Below are positions 42,432 to 60,630 of a stretch of 64,000 bases of DNA, in pieces (within the stretch, counting starts at the first letter, position 1; every line of letters starts with the position of its first letter). The notes under the pieces were generated by a model, which was not told the DNA's origin, did not search any database, and worked only from the letters and a program-made list of their open reading frames with translations. Where the stretch lies: positions 2,074,662 through 2,138,661 of the forward strand of contig OY759724.1 in NCBI GenBank assembly GCA_963662715.1, written 5' to 3'. The position numbers were made by a program, and so were the translations under genes. The DNA is from Candidatus Omnitrophota bacterium (GTDB lineage Bacteria > Omnitrophota > Gorgyraeia > Zapsychrales > JANLHA01).

Positions 42432-43400
42432 TTGAAGCTGAGGGATATTTTTGATTTACTTGTTCGAGAAGGTGTTCAGGCGGATTTAAGGCCTCTTAAG
42501 CAAATTCAAGGGCAACAGCGGCGGCTTAAAAAAGAATATCAGTTGTTGCCGGAAAAAAAACGTAAGTTCTTTGACAAAGAACGCTTGTCTAATCCTTATT
42601 CAGATTCCCGGGTTTTATCCGGGGACCCCGATCTGGATGTGACACAAATTTTGGTGGGTATTGATATCGGCGTCGGGGAACTTCTCGTGGCCAATCAGTT
42701 GCGACAGTCCGGAATAGCTGTTGACGCGGTCTTAAGTCATCATCCTCTGGGGAAAGCTTTGGCCGGCTTGACGGATGTGATGGGGATTCAGACGGACATT
42801 TTGATAAAACAGGGGGTGAAGGATGCCGCGGCCAAAGGCTTGATGGAAAGGCGGATAGGGGAGGTTGCCCGTCGGTTGCATGGCCAGAATCATGAGCAGG
42901 TCGTTGATGCCGCCCGCTTGCTGGGTATCCCGCTGCTGTGCTGTCATACCCCGGCCGATAATCATGTCGCGAGCTATTTGCAGACCCTGATGGAACGGCG
43001 GCATCCCAAAAAACTGGAGGACGTCGTAGAGCTCCTTTTGAAAGAGCCGGAATATCAGGAAGCCGCCTTAAGAGGGGCCGGCCCGCATATTTTGGCCGGG
43101 GAGCCGGACGATAAAGCCGGACGTATTCTGGTTGATATGACAGGAGGGGCGGAAGGTTCCAAAGAGACTTTTGCCCGGCTATCTCAGCTCGGGATTAATA
43201 CCTTGTTGATCATGCATTATTCAGAAGGGCATTATCAAAAGGTTAAAAACGAATATTTAAATGTGGTTAACGCTGGTCATATTGCCAGCGATACTTTGGG
43301 GATAAATTTAATTTTAGATAAGTTGGAACGACAGGCACAATTGCAAGTTTTGGAATGTTCCGGATTCAGGAGATTTAAACGTTATGGGACTCATCCCTGA
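42432..43400 (+). CDS. NIF3-family (YqfO/YbgI, DUF34) dinuclear-metal-centre protein
   Basis: His-rich metal motifs LSHHPL and CCHTPADNH, with a PII-like insert region. TTG start. Confidence 0.7.
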   Translation: MKLRDIFDLLVREGVQADLRPLKQIQGQQRRLKKEYQLLPEKKRKFFDKERLSNPYSDSRVLSGDPDLDVTQILVGIDIGVGELLVANQLRQSGIAVDAVLSHHPLGKALAGLTDVMGIQTDILIKQGVKDAAAKGLMERRIGEVARRLHGQNHEQVVDAARLLGIPLLCCHTPADNHVASYLQTLMERRHPKKLEDVVELLLKEPEYQEAALRGAGPHILAGEPDDKAGRILVDMTGGAEGSKETFARLSQLGINTLLIMHYSEGHYQKVKNEYLNVVNAGHIASDTLGINLILDKLERQAQLQVLECSGFRRFKRYGTHP

Positions 43401-45165
43401 AGATACCGTCCGCCAGATCCTCGATCGGGTGGATATCGTTGATGTGATTTCTTCATGGCTCCCTTTGAAACGGGCCGGACGGAACTATAAAGCTCCGTGC
43501 CCTTTTCACCAGGAAAAGACTCCGTCTTTTGTCGTTAATCCTGATAAGCAGATTTTTCATTGCTTCGGTTGCGGAATCGGGGGGAATGTGGTTTCTTTTG
43601 TGATGCAGCAGGAGCAGATAAGTTTTCCGGAAGCCATGAGACTCCTGGCGGACCGATGCGGTGTGGTCATCCCTCAGACGGATTCCCATCGCTCGCAGAA
43701 AGATAAACAGAGGGAACAGATTCTTGAGGCCACGCAGTTGGCGTGTCAGTTTTATCATCGGCAGTTGCTGTCTTCCCGAAGTGAAGGGGCTCGGGAGGCG
43801 CGTAGCTATTTGAAGGAGCGCGGCATTCATCTTGAGCCGGTCCAGGAATATCAATTGGGCTATGCGCCGGATCAATGGGAGTCTTTATTGATCTTTCTAA
43901 GAGACAAAGGTGTTCCGCCGGATATCATGGATAAAGCCGGTCTGATTATCCCTCGGCAGAAGCAGCCAGGATATTATGATAGATTTCGTAACCGGATTAT
44001 CTTTCCGATCCTGGACAGACGAGGCCGCTGTCTGGCTTTTGGCGCACGCTCCCTGGAGAAGGACAACCCGGCGAAATATATCAATTCCCCGGAGACCGTG
44101 CTTTATACGAAAGGTCACCACCTGTACGGACTGAACTGGGCCAAAGACGCTATCGTTCAGGAAGACCAGGCCATCGTCGTTGAAGGATATATCGATTTTA
44201 TTACCCCATTTCATGCCGGTATAAAAAATATCGTCGCTTCATTGGGAACCGCTTTGACCGTGGAGCAGATCCGGATTTTGAGCCGGTATACTCACAATGT
44301 GTTCATGCTGTTTGACTCGGACGAGGCCGGAGAACAGGCGATGATGCGGAGCCTGGATTTGCTGGTTGAAGAGGGGTTTAACGTCCGCATCGCAACCCTG
44401 GCGGTTGGGGAGGACCCGGATTCTTTTATCCGGAAACATTCCGTCCGCGATTTTAAAGACCGTTTGGCGCAGGCCGAGACATTTTTTGATTTTAAATTGC
44501 GTGTTCTTTTATCGCGACATAATTCCCAAACGATTGAAGGGCGGGCCCAAATTTCTTCGGACATGTTGCAAACTGTGGCTAAGTTCCCGAATGCTGTCAT
44601 TCGGGCGGAATATGTGAAGCGTTTAGCCGGTGCTCTTTGTTTGTCTGAGGAGGCTTTGGCTTTTGAGTTTAAGAGAATCCTGGCCAGCCACGGCCAGCAG
44701 CAAAAGGCATCAGCGCCTTCCCCGGCGGGAGGGGTTGAAACGGCTTTTCCTGTCCGTCCTGTCGAACGGGATATGCTCCGTTTGCTGCTTAATGAACAGA
44801 GTTTCGTCCCGCTAACGAAGGAGTTGTTGTCCCTTTCTGATTTTCATAACGAAGACGTACGGTCTGTTATGGCGAAAGTTTTTGAGTTGTACGAGGAAAG
44901 ACAAGAAGTTCATTTGTCTGACTTAATGTGTTGTTTCGAGGATCAAAAGATTTTGCAAATGATATCTCATCTGGTTGCCGATGAGGAGTTTGTTGTTGGC
45001 GATAAGCAGCGTTTCCATAAAGATTGCTTGCATCGTTTGCGTCAGGACCGGCTGAAAATGATTCGACAAGATATTTTGCGGCAGATGCGACAGGCTGATC
45101 AGCAGGGAGATGCAGAGAAGCTGGAGGAATTAATGCTGGAGTTTAATCGAATTGTAAAAAATTAA
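43384..45165 (+). CDS. dnaG: DNA primase
   Basis: Zinc finger CPFHQEKTPSFVVNPDKQIFHCFGCGIGGN and TOPRIM region VVEGYIDFI...LFDSDEAG. Confidence 0.95.
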   Translation: MGLIPEDTVRQILDRVDIVDVISSWLPLKRAGRNYKAPCPFHQEKTPSFVVNPDKQIFHCFGCGIGGNVVSFVMQQEQISFPEAMRLLADRCGVVIPQTDSHRSQKDKQREQILEATQLACQFYHRQLLSSRSEGAREARSYLKERGIHLEPVQEYQLGYAPDQWESLLIFLRDKGVPPDIMDKAGLIIPRQKQPGYYDRFRNRIIFPILDRRGRCLAFGARSLEKDNPAKYINSPETVLYTKGHHLYGLNWAKDAIVQEDQAIVVEGYIDFITPFHAGIKNIVASLGTALTVEQIRILSRYTHNVFMLFDSDEAGEQAMMRSLDLLVEEGFNVRIATLAVGEDPDSFIRKHSVRDFKDRLAQAETFFDFKLRVLLSRHNSQTIEGRAQISSDMLQTVAKFPNAVIRAEYVKRLAGALCLSEEALAFEFKRILASHGQQQKASAPSPAGGVETAFPVRPVERDMLRLLLNEQSFVPLTKELLSLSDFHNEDVRSVMAKVFELYEERQEVHLSDLMCCFEDQKILQMISHLVADEEFVVGDKQRFHKDCLHRLRQDRLKMIRQDILRQMRQADQQGDAEKLEELMLEFNRIVKN

Positions 45166-45177
45166 TGAGGTAAATGA

Positions 45178-46758
45178 ATGGATAAAAAGGATTTAAAAGT
45201 TGATTTGGAAAAACTGATTGCTTTGGGGAAAAAGAAGGGATTCCTGACCTATGACGAGGTCAATTCCACATTATCCGAAAACGTTGATTCCTCCGAAGAC
45301 ATCGATCATGTTTTTGAGATCTTAGACGGGAAGAATATTAAAGTCCTGGAATCGGACGATGACTTTGTCCCCCCGGAAGACGAAGAGGGCGAAACCCGCG
45401 AACAACAACTGAGACGTTTGCGTGAGGAGCAAAACCGGGATGACGATTATGCGGATAAGTTTATCCCCCTGGACGACCCTGTCAAAATGTATCTCAAACA
45501 GATGGGGTCTATCCCTCTGTTAATGCGCGACGAAGAGATTAACCTTGCAAAACGCATTGAGGAAACAGAGCATCGGTTAGCCGAGGCCCTTTTTGTGACC
45601 GCTTTTGCCCGGAAGGAAGCCCTGGATGTCGTGGGCAAGGTCCTTAAAGAGGAGATCAATGTCGAAGATGTCATTAAGGATGAGCTGGAAAGACGTCCGA
45701 AGCTTATCCGTGATCTCAAGAGAATCATGAAGAAGGTGAAGTACTCCCGGATAGGCACCGAGCAGTCGGCCAAGGCGCTGGCGGAATTTAAGTTAACGGC
45801 CTCCTTTAATGAAGATACGATCAATAAGATTGTTGAGATCGTGGAGAGTATTGCCAAGATTGAGAAGGCCCTGAAAGGGAAAAGAAAAAGCGCGAGCGTT
45901 CAGGAATTGAAAGCTCGCAAGAAAAAATTGGAAAAAGAACTGGGCGAGCCGGTCGGCAAGGTTAAAGACCAGTTGAGAGTTATTAAAATCCGGCAGTCAA
46001 AATTCAACAAAGCCAAAAAATTGCTGGTGGAAGCGAATCTGCGGCTGGTTGTCAGTATCGCGAAGAAATACATTAATCGGGGGCTTTCTTTTCTCGACCT
46101 GATACAGGAAGGAAACATGGGGCTGATTCGGGCTGTTGAAAAGTTTGAGTATAAACGGGGATACAAGTTTTCCACCTACGCCACCTGGTGGATTCGTCAG
46201 GCCATTACCAGGTCTATTGCTGATCAGGCCAGAACGATTCGCATCCCGGTGCATATGACGGAAACGATCAATAAAATCATTCGTGTTTCCCGGTTGTTTG
46301 TCCAGGAATACGGCCGTGAGCCGACCGCCCAGGAAATTGCCAAGCAGATGCGTATCCCGGTCAGCAAAGTTAAAGAGATACTGAAAATTTCTCAAGTGCC
46401 CATTTCTCTGCAGACACCCATTGGGGATGAAGGGGATACGAATTTCGGTGATTTTATCGAGGACAAGAAGGCTGTCTCCCCGGCGAATGCAACGCTGCAC
46501 TCCATGCTGAAGGAGGAAATCACGTCTGTTTTGCAAACCCTGGACGAAAGAGAACGCAAAATCCTGGAGCTGCGCTTTGGGATTCATGACGGTACGAGCC
46601 GGACGCTGGAAGAAGTCGGTACGGAATTTAATGTCACGAGGGAAAGGGTCCGGCAAATAGAATCTAAAGCATTGAGAAAATTGCGACATCCCACAAGATC
46701 CCGGAGGATAAAGACTTTTCTTGATATTTCTGCCAAGGAGGCTGAAGGTATCATTTAA
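45178..46758 (+). CDS. rpoD: Primary RNA polymerase sigma factor (sigma-70/RpoD)
   Basis: Region 1.1 [12 protein letters not shown], region 2 [37 protein letters not shown], and region 4 [20 protein letters not shown]. Confidence 0.95.
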
Positions 46759-48048: not shown

Positions 48049-48122
48049 GGGCCCATAGCTCAGTCGGTCAGAGCAGTTGACTCATAATCAATTGGTCCCA
48101 GGTTCGAGTCCTGGTGGGCCCA
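48049..48122 (+). tRNA. tRNA with CAT anticodon (elongator Met, or Ile2 read via lysidine)
   Basis: Cloverleaf read by eye: acceptor GGGCCCA/TGGGCCC, D-arm GCTC...GAGC, anticodon stem GTTGA/TCAAT with loop CTCATAA, T-arm CCAGG TTCGAGT CCTGG. No encoded CCA. Confidence 0.85.
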
Positions 48123-48177: not shown

Positions 48178-48254
48178 GGGCGCATAGCTCAGCCGGTTAG
48201 AGTGCTGCCCTCACATGGCAGAGGTCGAAGGTTCGAGTCCTTCTGTGCCCACCA
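48178..48254 (+). tRNA. tRNA-Val (CAC anticodon), CCA encoded
   Basis: Acceptor GGGCGCA/TGTGCCC (one G-T pair), anticodon stem CTGCC/GGCAG with loop CTCACAT, T-arm GAAGG TTCGAGT CCTTC, 3' ACCA. Confidence 0.85.
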
Positions 48255-49090: not shown

Positions 49091-49546
49091 ATGAGACTGA
49101 AAATATACTCTGATGGTGCTTGTAGCGGTAATCCCGGCCCCGCAGGTATTGGTGTTGTTATTCACAAAGACGGGGAAGTTGTTAAAGAGATTTCGAAGTA
49201 TATCGGAGAGGCAACGAATAATATTGCAGAGTATACGGCTGTCATTTATGCCGCTCAGGAAGCGCTGATTATGCGGGCCGATGAAGTAGCGCTTTTTACT
49301 GACAGCGAGCTTGTTTATAATCAATTGTCCGGCTATTATAAGGTTAAGGACAGCAAAATCAAGCCGCTTTTTGATCAAATTCAGCATTTAGCTGGGGGGT
49401 TCAAAAAATTTTATATCACGCATGTCCTCAGGGATAAAAACAAGGACGCTGATAAATTAGCACGTAAGGCCATTAAAGACAAGCAGGCCAAGGTGGTTGC
49501 CTCGCGGCCGGTCCAGAATCAGGTGCAGTCTGATTTATGGGCTTAA
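49091..49546 (+). CDS. rnhA: Ribonuclease HI family protein (RVT_3/type-1 RNase H fold)
   Basis: DEDD catalytic pattern: IYSDGAC, TNNIAEYTA, FTDSELV and NKDADKLA. Confidence 0.8.
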   Translation: MRLKIYSDGACSGNPGPAGIGVVIHKDGEVVKEISKYIGEATNNIAEYTAVIYAAQEALIMRADEVALFTDSELVYNQLSGYYKVKDSKIKPLFDQIQHLAGGFKKFYITHVLRDKNKDADKLARKAIKDKQAKVVASRPVQNQVQSDLWA

Positions 49547-49897
49547 ACAAACCGCGGGGAGGAAAGTCCGGGCTCCAAAGGATATTGTATCCTGGTAACG
49601 CAGGACATCCTGATTTCCGTATCAGGGTAGGATTAGAGCTACAGTGACGATACTCGATCCTTGTTAACAGGGGTCGAGGGTGAAACGAGCAATCTCTACA
49701 AGGAGCAAGGCCAAATAGGGAGAGACACGGTGATAACACCGGGGCGAAGTGATCCGCTTCGCGAAAAGAGCGCAGCTGTTTTCGGTATCTCCGGGTAGGC
49801 TGCAAGAGTCCTTAACGTGAGTTGAGGAGTCAGTGCAATAACCATCCATCTCGCCTGTAAAAAATCGAGATGCACAAAACCCGGCTTATTGGTCTGC
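49525..49897 (+). ncRNA. rnpB: RNase P RNA, bacterial type A
   Basis: Universally conserved P4 strands GAGGAAAGTCCGGGCTCC (49558-49575) and CACAAAACCCGGCTTA (49873-49888). Other matches: GGTAACGC, AGGGTGAAA, AGCAAGGCCAAATAGGG and CCGGGTAGGCTGC. Ends were inferred from pairing GCAG(T)CTGAT with ATTGG(T)CTGC and are approximate. Confidence 0.85.
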
Positions 49898-50018
49898 TTG
49901 AAATATCATTTTTGGGGAATTTTTATGAGTGTTCTGAGAGATGTCGGAATATGGCTTTTCGAAAAGAGAGCGGATTTTTTATTTGTATGAATCATGATTT
50001 AAATGAGGAGGGTTGAAT

Positions 50019-57641: not shown

Positions 57642-59432
57642 ATGGATAAGTCACTGATTAGAAATTTTTCGATTATTGCCCATATTGACCACGGAAAATC
57701 GACCCTGGCGGATCGGTTGCTTTTATTTACCGGGGCGATCGATGAAAGAAAATTCCAGAATCAGCTTTTGGATGATATGGATATTGAACGGGAGAGGGGC
57801 ATCACAATTAAAGCTTCTGCCGTAAGGCTGGATTACAAAGCAGACAACGGCAAGTCATATGTTTTTAACTTGATTGATACCCCGGGGCATGTGGACTTTA
57901 CGTATGAGGTGGAAAAATCTCTGCGTGCATGTGAAGGGGCTCTGCTCGTCATCGATGCTTCGCAGGGGGTTGAATCGCAGACCGTGGCGAACAATTATCT
58001 TGCTATTGAAAGCAATCTGGAAATTCTGCCTGTGATTAATAAGATTGATATTGCCAACATTGATATTGATCACGCTAAGATGGAGTTTATGGATATTTTG
58101 AACTTTAAAGAAGAGGATATCCAGCTGGTTTCGGCCAAAGAAGGGGTTGGCATCAAGGAGCTGTTTGAAAAGATTGTCAGTTTCATCCCCTGCCCGGAAG
58201 GAGATGATCATGCGCCTCTGCAAGCTCTGATTTTCGATATGAAATATGACATTTATAAAGGAATTATTATTTATGTGCGCATCTTCAACGGCGTTATAGA
58301 TCCGGGGCTGAAGATCCTGATGATGCATACCGGGAAGGAGTTTTCCATAGAAGAGATCGGTGTTTTTCGCCCGGAAGCGACCAGGGTCAAGAAGCTTACA
58401 AGCGGCGAGGTCGGGTACATTACATGTAATGTCCACGACCCGAGAGAAGTCAGGGTGGGAGATACGATAACGGCTGTCGCCCGTCCGACAGTATCTCCGC
58501 TGGAAGGCTATCGCCAGCTGAATCCCATGGTTTTTTGTGGGGTTTATCCCGTCAATTCAAAAGATTTTATGTCTTTGCGGGAAGCCATCGATAAGCTGAG
58601 GCTGAATGACCCGAGTTTTGTTTTTGAGCCGGAAACCTCTCAGTCCTTTGGCCACGGATTCCGGTGCGGCTTCTTAGGGCTGCTGCACATGGAAATTGTG
58701 CAAGAACGCCTGCAGCGGGAATATGATCTCAACCTGATCTTGACGACGCCCAACGTTAAATACCGCCTTACAACTAAAAATAAAGAGACTTGTTATGTCG
58801 AGAATCCCGCCCAGTTGACGGAGCGGACCCAGATAGACCGGATCGAGGAACCGTATCTGGAGGTTTCCATCATGTCTCCCGTGGAATACATGGATAAGGT
58901 GATGGAGCTGTCCAAATCTAAAAGAGGGATCTATATCAAGAGTGAGTATGTCTCTGACCGTATGCGTATTCTTTTCGACATGCCCTTATCCGAAGTTATC
59001 GTTGATTATAACGATATGATTAAATCCGTAACGCGGGGCTACGGCTCCATCGATTACCGGTTCAAAGGCTATTATCCTGCCAAAATTTCTAAACTGGATA
59101 TTCTGATTAACGGAAAAGAATGCGATGCTTTCTCCTGCCTTGTGAACCAGGAGAGAGCTTATGAAAAGGGGGTTGCGTTAGTGAGTAAATTAAAAGAGCT
59201 GATCCCGCAACAGTTGTTTGAGGTCCGCATTCAGGCCACGTGTGACGGAAGGGTCATTTCCAGCGCCAAAGTGCGCTCAACAGGGAAAAATGTGACGGCG
59301 AAATGTTACGGGGGAGATATTACCCGCAAACGGAAATTGTGGGAAAAGCAGAAAGAAGGGAAAAAAAGGTTGAAGCAGATAGGGAATGTTGAGGTGCCGC
59401 AGGAGGCATTCTTGGCTGTATTAAAAATTTGA
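57642..59432 (+). CDS. lepA: Translation elongation factor 4 (LepA)
   Basis: IRNFSIIAHIDHGKSTLADR, LIDTPGHVDF and NKID G-domain motifs. C-terminal LepA region (YGGDITRKRKLWEKQKEGKKR). Confidence 0.95.
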   Translation: MDKSLIRNFSIIAHIDHGKSTLADRLLLFTGAIDERKFQNQLLDDMDIERERGITIKASAVRLDYKADNGKSYVFNLIDTPGHVDFTYEVEKSLRACEGALLVIDASQGVESQTVANNYLAIESNLEILPVINKIDIANIDIDHAKMEFMDILNFKEEDIQLVSAKEGVGIKELFEKIVSFIPCPEGDDHAPLQALIFDMKYDIYKGIIIYVRIFNGVIDPGLKILMMHTGKEFSIEEIGVFRPEATRVKKLTSGEVGYITCNVHDPREVRVGDTITAVARPTVSPLEGYRQLNPMVFCGVYPVNSKDFMSLREAIDKLRLNDPSFVFEPETSQSFGHGFRCGFLGLLHMEIVQERLQREYDLNLILTTPNVKYRLTTKNKETCYVENPAQLTERTQIDRIEEPYLEVSIMSPVEYMDKVMELSKSKRGIYIKSEYVSDRMRILFDMPLSEVIVDYNDMIKSVTRGYGSIDYRFKGYYPAKISKLDILINGKECDAFSCLVNQERAYEKGVALVSKLKELIPQQLFEVRIQATCDGRVISSAKVRSTGKNVTAKCYGGDITRKRKLWEKQKEGKKRLKQIGNVEVPQEAFLAVLKI

Positions 59433-59443
59433 CGGAGAGATTT

Positions 59444-60175
59444 ATGGAAGACATTCATTGGAAGGATCAATATGATAAGCTGATCGCGGAAGGAAAAAAA
59501 AGCGGATTCCTCCACCGGGATGCGATCACCAAGAGCCTTCAATCCGCCGGGGCCGATGAGCAAGAGCTTCAGCAGGCGCTGGTGAATTTGCATGATGAAG
59601 GCATTGAAATTGTCAGGAAGTCGGCCACCCGCGAATGGGTGGAATCCATTGTTATCGCCTTTATTCTTGCCATGTTTATCCGGGAATTCTTCTTCCAGGC
59701 TTTCCGGATTCCAAGCGGGTCTATGCGGAACACCCTCCTGGAGGGGGATCGGCTGCTGGTTAATAAATTGTATTATGGCCCCAAGATTCGGTTTACCCAA
59801 AAACGTTTGCCGGGGTTCACGACCCCGCATCGGGGAGATGTTATTGTCTTTATTTACCCGCTTGACCCCAAAAGAGATTTTATTAAACGACTTATAGCCG
59901 TGGGCGGGGAGATCGTAGAAATAAAGGACGGCGATATCTTTATTAACGGGAAGCTGATTGAAAATCCTTTGATTAAGAACACTTTCTACTATAATTACGG
60001 CAATGCTTTGCCGGGCCAGAAGATCAAGGTTCCGGAAGGGCATTATTTCGTTTTAGGCGATAACAGTGCCTCGAGCAGTGACAGCCGTTATTGGGGGTTT
60101 GTGCCGGAAAACAATGTTGTCGGGAAGGCCGCTTTGATTTACTGGCCTCCGCAACGCATACGCCTGATAAAATAG
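59444..60175 (+). CDS. lepB: Signal peptidase I with an N-terminal cytoplasmic sigma-70-region-1.1-like extension
   Basis: S26 boxes IPSGSMRNTL, RGDVIVF, KRLIAVGGE and VLGDNSASSSDSRYWG. A single TM (WVESIVIAFILAMFIREFFF) follows about 65 N-terminal residues. RBS GGAGAG before ATG 59444. Confidence 0.9.
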   Translation: MEDIHWKDQYDKLIAEGKKSGFLHRDAITKSLQSAGADEQELQQALVNLHDEGIEIVRKSATREWVESIVIAFILAMFIREFFFQAFRIPSGSMRNTLLEGDRLLVNKLYYGPKIRFTQKRLPGFTTPHRGDVIVFIYPLDPKRDFIKRLIAVGGEIVEIKDGDIFINGKLIENPLIKNTFYYNYGNALPGQKIKVPEGHYFVLGDNSASSSDSRYWGFVPENNVVGKAALIYWPPQRIRLIK

Positions 60176-60219: not shown

Positions 60220-60630
60220 ATGAGAAAGATGTTGCGGAAGAGTTTGAATATCGGCGTCGCCGGGTATTTCTTCGTCAGCCTGTTGTTTCTTCTTCTGTCG
60301 GGATGTGCTTCTTTTGGGCAGCAAAAAGGATCTCTTCAGAAAACGGACGGGAAGCTCCGAAAAGAAACGAAAGAAGAGATCCTTTCCGCGGCAGGGACAG
60401 TTGTGGAAGCCGTGAGCGGACAGGATATGACAGAAGAGGAATTAAAGGATTTTGTGGAGAATATGCGCAAGGATGAAGAGGCTCAGGAGGCGGTGGAAAC
60501 CATCGCTGATGCCTTGGACCAGAATCATAAAAAAGTGAAATATTGCCCTGTGACCGGAAAAAGATACCGTTATAGTCTTGAAAGATGTCCGATTCATAAT
60601 GTGCCGTTGAAAGTATTAGGGGAAGAATAA
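60220..60630 (+). CDS. Small lipoprotein, hypothetical
   Basis: Signal peptide with lipobox LLSGC. An acidic helical middle region. C-terminal CPVTG...CPIH pattern. The start was trimmed from track ORF 60091 to ATG 60220. Confidence 0.6.
   Translation: MRKMLRKSLNIGVAGYFFVSLLFLLLSGCASFGQQKGSLQKTDGKLRKETKEEILSAAGTVVEAVSGQDMTEEELKDFVENMRKDEEAQEAVETIADALDQNHKKVKYCPVTGKRYRYSLERCPIHNVPLKVLGEE

Follow-up and report, generated by a model that had tools for sequence, protein, structure and literature searches.

Region 1.1 of the group 1 sigma factors (sigma70, sigmaA) is an acidic module that resides in the DNA channel of RNA polymerase until it is displaced by promoter DNA; it is usually regarded as a sigma-specific regulatory module, and the cytoplasmic tail of signal peptidase I is usually considered trivial. 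Here we analyze the lepB gene, which encodes signal peptidase I, in a 64,000-nucleotide stretch of a Candidatus Omnitrophota genome (contig OY759724.1 of assembly GCA_963662715.1; hereinafter the window, that is, the whole stretch analyzed, with all coordinates given as positions within it). The predicted protein begins with a domain that is homologous to sigma region 1.1. Well-characterized versions of region 1.1, such as those of Escherichia coli sigma70, Bacillus subtilis sigmaA (5mww) and Thermotoga maritima sigmaA (2k6x), belong to the Pfam family PF03979 and, like the LepB domain, consist of three helices and two short strands; both are N-terminal and have in common the signature hxxLhxxGKKxGaLxxxEh ... 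LxxxGIxV. The contexts differ: in sigma factors, region 1.1 precedes region 1.2 and regions 2-4, whereas the LepB domain precedes a membrane helix and a periplasmic protease and lacks the last ~25 Pfam positions as well as the acidic linker.

The remainder of the protein resembles canonical LepB/SipS (MEROPS S26A), with the S26 domain, the serine of the SGSM motif, the lysine of the IKR motif, an N-in anchor and a gene located after lepA. Ordinary single-anchor LepBs, including ~80% of the Omnitrophota relatives listed, start with a short Lys-rich tail of 5-25 residues, in contrast to the folded 58 residues of the window LepB.

The delta subunit of RNA polymerase has a long acidic tail, which is absent from the LepB domain. 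The fold of the N-terminal domain of delta (RpoE) from Firmicutes is reported to be similar to that of B. subtilis sigma 1.1 (PMC10141391), which makes delta another small, RNA polymerase-associated relative of the region-1.1 fold; delta is not among the fold-search matches listed and shows no sequence match to the LepB domain. The Menshen NsnA proteins offer a precedent in which this fold serves as an N-terminal accessory module in proteins other than sigma factors: their N-terminal 'sensor' domains have a region-1.1-like fold recognised by structure only (PMC12065111). The NsnA domains belong to cytoplasmic defence proteins, whereas the LepB domain displays sequence homology, is part of a membrane protease and has no defence context visible around lepB. 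A full-text search of the literature yielded no description of a sigma-1.1/S26 fusion, and Menshen NsnA was the sole non-sigma use of a region-1.1-like fold that it retrieved (PMC12065111).

Homology of the LepB N-terminus to sigma region 1.1

The lepB open reading frame (ORF) spans positions 59444..60175 on the plus strand, from the ATG at 59444 to the TAG at 60173-60175, and encodes a signal peptidase I of 243 amino acids (aa) with Pfam matches to PF03979 and PF10502; an identical protein is present in public data (P0001). The region-1.1-like domain corresponds to residues 1-58 (59444..59617, plus strand), with helices at residues 6-20, 25-34 and 39-51 and short strands at residues 22-24 and 55-57. 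The earlier note, made from the sequence alone, had proposed that the LepB N-terminus resembles sigma-70 region 1.1 and named a search against PF03979 and a structural superposition as the ways to find out; both bear the proposal out. In a Pfam scan of the 243-aa protein, PF03979 (Sigma70_r1_1) matches residues 7-61 with an E-value of 8.1e-07 and a score of 29.4 bits, above the curated gathering cut-off of 22.5 bits and thus a significant match, and residues 1-65 by themselves score 32.7 bits. Among the 21 homologous N-domains collected from LepB relatives, 20 individually match PF03979 at E<=1, with the best value being 1.5e-09.

The same family is represented elsewhere in the window by region 1.1 of the primary sigma factor RpoD (45178..45357, plus strand), the gene for which (45178-46758) lies directly after dnaG. 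When the LepB N-terminal segment was compared to the first 100 aa of RpoD with BLASTP, the aligned segment, KLIAEGKKSGFLHRDAITKSL on the LepB side, contained 12 identical residues out of 21 (E 4e-06). A profile built from the 21 LepB N-domains matches RpoD residues 1-56 with 43.5 bits and has no match besides RpoD among the remaining window ORFs. Searched against 1.84 billion representative proteins, this profile retrieves 498 matches at E<=0.001; save for one fragment of the same LepB family, nearly every one of the best 150 of the 498 is the N-terminus of a primary sigma factor, and the top-scoring sigma matches closely resemble the window RpoD. Against all PDB sequences, the top 22 matches are all primary sigma factors, including T. 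maritima sigmaA 1.1 (2k6x) with an E-value of 2e-08. The signature hxxLhxxGKKKGaL..(D/E)xh ... L..xGIxV is in register with sigma 1.1. A word-indexed protein search with the N-domain alignment gave 2 matches among the 173 candidates collected.

Structure prediction leads to the same family. The AlphaFold2 (AF2) model obtained with the alignment of the 21 homologous N-domains is confident (predicted local distance difference test score, pLDDT, 85) and consists of three helices and two short strands, the compact helical fold of the solved region 1.1 structures. Its match in the PDB is unique and strong: the top Foldseek match is the nuclear magnetic resonance structure of B. subtilis sigmaA domain 1.1 (5mww; template modelling (TM) score 0.76, root-mean-square deviation 1.4 A over 52 columns), followed by a full-length SigA model, and E. 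coli sigma70 (6psr_L) is matched as well, with a TM score of 0.68. By both sequence and fold, the LepB N-domain is a member of PF03979. Because sequence, profile and fold searches all return region 1.1 of primary sigma factors, the homology is reciprocal and specific, and well above chance.

Topology, surface and possible role of the domain

Downstream of the N-domain, the predicted product is an ordinary S26A type I signal peptidase with a Ser/Lys dyad. A single membrane-anchor helix (residues 61-86, 59624..59701, plus strand; boundaries from the full-length AF2 model) follows immediately after the juxtamembrane residues R58-K59-S60; its hydrophobic run, read from the sequence, is WVESIVIAFILAMFI, with the hydrophobic core at residues 66-79, and E64, W65, E67 and S68 are invariant across the 21 homologues. 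The Peptidase_S26 catalytic domain (PF10502, E 1.4e-53) occupies residues 63-234 (59630..60145, plus strand) and includes the catalytic Ser93 of the SGSM motif (59720-59722) and the general-base Lys148 of the IKR motif (59885-59887), both on the plus strand and both invariant in the 21 as well as in 26 aligned homologues. In the full-length AF2 model, the strand at residues 55-57 is separated by ~3 residues from the long helix 61-86, which leads into the beta-rich catalytic domain. Given the single anchor, the known S26 topology and the positively charged R58, K59 and R63 before the helix, the anchor is predicted to be N-in, which places the N-domain in the cytoplasm and the S26 domain in the periplasm.

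The LepB domain is not a functional sigma region 1.1 with respect to either context or acidity. What follows it is a membrane helix and Peptidase_S26, with no further sigma region; Pfam positions 4-58 of 81 are present, and the last helix and acidic linker of RpoD are replaced by the membrane helix. A strongly acidic surface is not found across the LepB domains: over 59 aligned positions, the net charge of the 21 LepB domains ranges from -4 to +7, with a median of +2, compared to a median of -6 and a range of -14 to +4 for 154 sigma-type domains that were collected with the LepB N-domain profile (Mann-Whitney p 2e-11). The LepB domains contain only a degraded form of the sigma motif TY(D/E)E(I/V)N. 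Only L13, K20, L49, G53, K59 and S60 are nearly invariant, in addition to the hydrophobic pattern; conservation in the N-domain is concentrated in the core, the turns and the GKKKG loop and does not outline a surface patch. The best reading of these data is that the fold has been retained and the sigma function has not.

The explanation that we favor, with a probability of roughly 0.5 for the whole, is that an old duplication of the 5' end of rpoD was reused as a membrane-apposed cap or docking domain. An ancestor within Candidatus Omnitrophota would have gained a second copy of the 5' end of the gene for its primary sigma factor, covering the compact three-helix core of region 1.1 but neither the acidic fourth helix nor the linker, and this copy would have been joined, in frame, to the beginning of the housekeeping lepB gene. 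The resulting folded cytoplasmic domain of ~58 residues would sit ~3 residues from the membrane, before the N-in anchor; purifying selection would have kept the fold while the surface drifted from acidic to neutral or basic, and the domain most likely would no longer be a DNA mimic in the RNA polymerase cleft. It might instead form a small, mostly basic, membrane-apposed cytoplasmic cap or docking foot that could stabilise the N-in orientation of the anchor, contact the anionic inner leaflet or contact a neighbour in the secretion machinery. This mechanistic part is tentative, and we rate the cap or docking role at slightly below even odds.

Several considerations weigh against this explanation. 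The cap or docking role is reached by exclusion, and most Omnitrophota LepBs function without the domain, so that any topological role must be dispensable. The proportion of nonsynonymous differences in the N-domain is ~5 times that in the catalytic domain, which is compatible with weak constraint. Long forms of LepB are interspersed, in four groups, with short forms in the catalytic-domain tree, so that a single origin requires either several losses or poor resolution of the tree. Finally, no member of the family is more acidic than the window copy (-4, compared to -6 for the core of the window RpoD), and the charge argument is accordingly weak for this particular organism and applies to the family as a whole.

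The alternative that survives best, if still an unlikely one, is that the membrane-anchored copy of region 1.1 continues to bind the main channel of RNA polymerase or another region-1.1 partner, so that transcription would be brought to the site of secretion or core polymerase would be sequestered at the membrane. The earlier note had suggested a tether of this kind, to RNA polymerase, the nucleoid or another partner; the fusion that it described holds up, and the tether fares poorly. The homology to an RNA polymerase-binding module and the fold of that module are genuine, the window copy is still mildly acidic, and the domain is predicted to be cytoplasmic and is under purifying selection. 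Set against these points are the loss of acidity in the family (with net charges of up to +7), the missing acidic C-terminal helix and linker, and conservation that is confined to the core, with no conserved surface patch beyond the GKKKG loop, which is common to all sigma 1.1 domains. Furthermore, the ~3-residue linker holds the domain at the bilayer, where steric constraints would make it awkward to enter the polymerase cleft. In E. coli holoenzyme structures, region 1.1 stays in the channel mainly owing to electrostatic interactions and because the rest of sigma is anchored; both are missing here. Charge, extent, conservation and linker geometry thus argue that the domain is not a plug of the RNA polymerase channel. 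Recognition of the polymerase core or of free sigma by the anchored copy, either as a dedicated tether that couples transcription, translation and insertion ('transertion') or as a sink at the membrane in competition with sigma region 1.1 for the polymerase cleft, appears improbable, and a link to RNA polymerase of any kind is unlikely, being disfavoured by charge, conservation and geometry. Should the domain bind RNA polymerase after all, it would represent the first case of a protein link dedicated to connecting transcription with the secretion apparatus.

Under the favored explanation, a cap or docking domain derived from rpoD, the core fold of region 1.1 can leave sigma, lose its acidity and yet persist for a long time on an unrelated membrane enzyme. 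Such a case would be a natural experiment that separates what the fold does from what the charge does.

Translation of the N-terminal extension

The second alternative concerns the reading frame itself: translation might begin at an internal GTG or TTG, in which case the sigma-like frame would be a relic or an artefact of gene calling. The earlier note was right that no ATG occurs in frame ahead of the membrane helix; it placed a GTG at 59638 and considered it to be the only alternative start. This GTG is codon 66 and occupies positions 59639-59641, and two further in-frame candidates exist, the GTG at 59582 (codon 47) and the TTG at 59588 (codon 49). The availability of these codons and the size of most Omnitrophota LepBs (~195 aa) are compatible with an internal start. 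The frame is open, however, in at least 21 clusters: the 21 long homologues show no frame breaks through the N-domain and the junction, even though N-domain identity falls to 15-30%. Few of the N-termini vary in length, and the long forms have in common the junction (I/V)xxKS-xxREW.

The signals for initiation also point to the long start. A Shine-Dalgarno sequence, GGAG (59434..59437, plus strand), lies 6 nucleotides (nt) 5' of the ATG at 59444, and four related lepB loci (L001, L083, L084 and L085) have GGAG or AGGA and a start codon at the long lepB start, with equal spacing, so that this arrangement is kept in five loci including the window; the positions of the internal ATG, GTG and TTG codons are not kept across the related loci. 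A start at codon 66 would, in addition, produce a protein that lacks the invariant E64 and W65 as well as the nearly invariant K59 and S60. In the P0004 cluster, two shorter proteins of 216 and 221 aa, both encoded on one 10-kb contig, look more like truncated entries than like products of genuine alternative starts. An upstream TTG at 59429 overlaps the lepA stop codon (TTGA, 59429-59432) and is used as the lepB start in the mechanical ORF list; it is missing in L001 and L083, in which the ATG 15 nt downstream and the GGAG are kept.

Selection on the N-domain was assessed with the proportions of nonsynonymous (pN) and synonymous (pS) differences in place of the ratio of substitution rates (dN/dS), given that synonymous sites are saturated and dS is not estimable for most pairs. 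For the three closest pairs, pN in the N-domain is 0.14-0.27, compared to a pS of 0.65-0.79, and pN in the rest of LepB is 0.03-0.06. Because pN/pS in the N-domain is ~0.2-0.4 with saturated synonymous sites, the domain is under purifying selection in this frame, albeit ~5 times more relaxed than the catalytic domain.

The fusion is found on independent assemblies from NCBI, JGI, ENA and Logan, and is therefore not an assembly chimera, which further diminishes the case for an artefact. Together, the open frame, the conserved Shine-Dalgarno sequence and start codon and the pN/pS values show the domain fusion proposed in the earlier note to be genuine and translated, and leave very little probability for an internal start. 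We are highly confident that the housekeeping peptidase carries a translated, cytoplasmic domain derived from region 1.1. The last alternative, convergence of a generic three-helix or winged-helix-like domain that has no relationship to sigma and matches PF03979 by composition only, is just as improbable, given that the LepB profile draws almost only primary-sigma N-termini from the representative proteins and the PDB, that the motif is in register with sigma 1.1 and that no better-scoring non-sigma family was seen.

Distribution, origin and genomic neighbourhood

Of the best 120 LepB relatives, 22 have the N-terminal extension; 21 of these 22 are full-length, with 241-252 aa, and one is truncated, whereas the relatives without the extension are ~195 aa long. 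When P0095, a divergent long form, was used as the query of a second search, these proteins were found again, together with P0279 and two divergent variants (P0291 and P0301, described below). With both searches converged, the domain carriers amount to ~25 clusters (90% identity) among the 5.8 billion proteins of the database. The named relatives are all from Omnitrophota or Omnitrophica, and the names among cluster members, which only the P0004 cluster provides, are all Candidatus Omnitrophota. The hidden Markov model (HMM) of the N-domain family detected no copy in the 80 LepB loci among the matches listed for species-representative genomes (Omnitrophota, Desulfobacterota, Nitrospirota and others). 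The fusion is an unexpected and clean one that created a lineage-restricted accessory domain on signal peptidase I, narrow in distribution; as the evidence stands, it is a curiosity of some uncultured Omnitrophota. Public records label these proteins simply 'signal peptidase I', and precomputed Pfam tables already give both domains for about half of the carriers; the main use of the finding may lie in catalogues of domain evolution and in correcting annotations that read 'signal peptidase I' and take no account of the additional domain.

In the neighbour-joining tree of the catalytic domain, the four groups of long forms match the subgroups of the N-domain. Most carriers share the length of the domain and the junction. 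A single fusion with later losses is the probable scenario in light of this shared junction and of a domain length that does not vary among the 21 main forms, with the catalytic-domain tree falling short of proof. The inferred source of the domain is a duplication of the 5' end of rpoD. The window RpoD keeps its own region 1.1, which argues for duplication as opposed to transfer of the domain off sigma, and region 1.1 of RpoD is likely to represent the source family of the LepB domain. A recent rpoD-to-lepB duplication was rejected: a blastn comparison of the 5' end of lepB (59444-59640) with that of rpoD produced only chance matches of 7-9 nt. The lack of nucleotide similarity between the two 5' ends, along with the agreement between the N-domain and catalytic-domain subgroups, suggests an ancient event.

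Several related architectures were encountered in these searches. Among the Omnitrophota-dominated matches, P0291 and P0301 have divergent region-1.1-like N-domains, in which the loop or linker is longer but which the family HMM still recognizes, and P0014 (312 aa) has an unrelated 128-residue N-terminal extension on LepB. P0123, P0124, P0135, P0140 and P0159, apparently sigma-type proteins or fragments, contain two tandem copies of region 1.1, with four PF03979 stretches and sigma region 4 in P0123. The non-sigma protein P0251 (483 aa) combines an N-terminal region 1.1 (PF03979, E 1e-17) with leucine-rich repeats and has a hydrophobic segment around residue 241. Judging from P0251 and from the sigma factors with two to four tandem copies, the region-1.1 module is occasionally mobile.

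The lepA gene (EF4; 57642..59432, plus strand) is the 5' partner in the lepA-lepB pair, and 11 nt separate its stop codon from the ATG of lepB. L001, L083, L084 and L085 likewise have the LepA Pfam domains and the gene order cmk-lepA-lepB-small ORF-(pgsA-like, CDP-alcohol phosphatidyltransferase)-plsY. In view of the kept cmk-lepA-lepB synteny and the invariant Ser93 and Lys148, the window lepB is evidently the housekeeping orthologue of the classical lepA-lepB pair.

The small ORF directly 3' of lepB (60220-60630, plus strand) starts with a putative lipoprotein signal and lipobox (…LLFLLLSGC) and ends in a zinc-ribbon-like CPVTG…CPIH motif; the four related loci have an ORF of 115-148 aa without a Pfam match at the same position. 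Elsewhere in the window, nearly all long ORFs are on the plus strand. The dnaG (593 aa) and rpoD (526 aa) genes, 12 nt apart, are found in the classical dnaG-rpoD arrangement (43384-46758, plus strand), followed on the same strand by tRNA-Met(CAT) at 48049-48122, tRNA-Val(CAC) at 48178-48254 and a class A bacterial RNase P RNA at 49480-49904 (163.7 bits).
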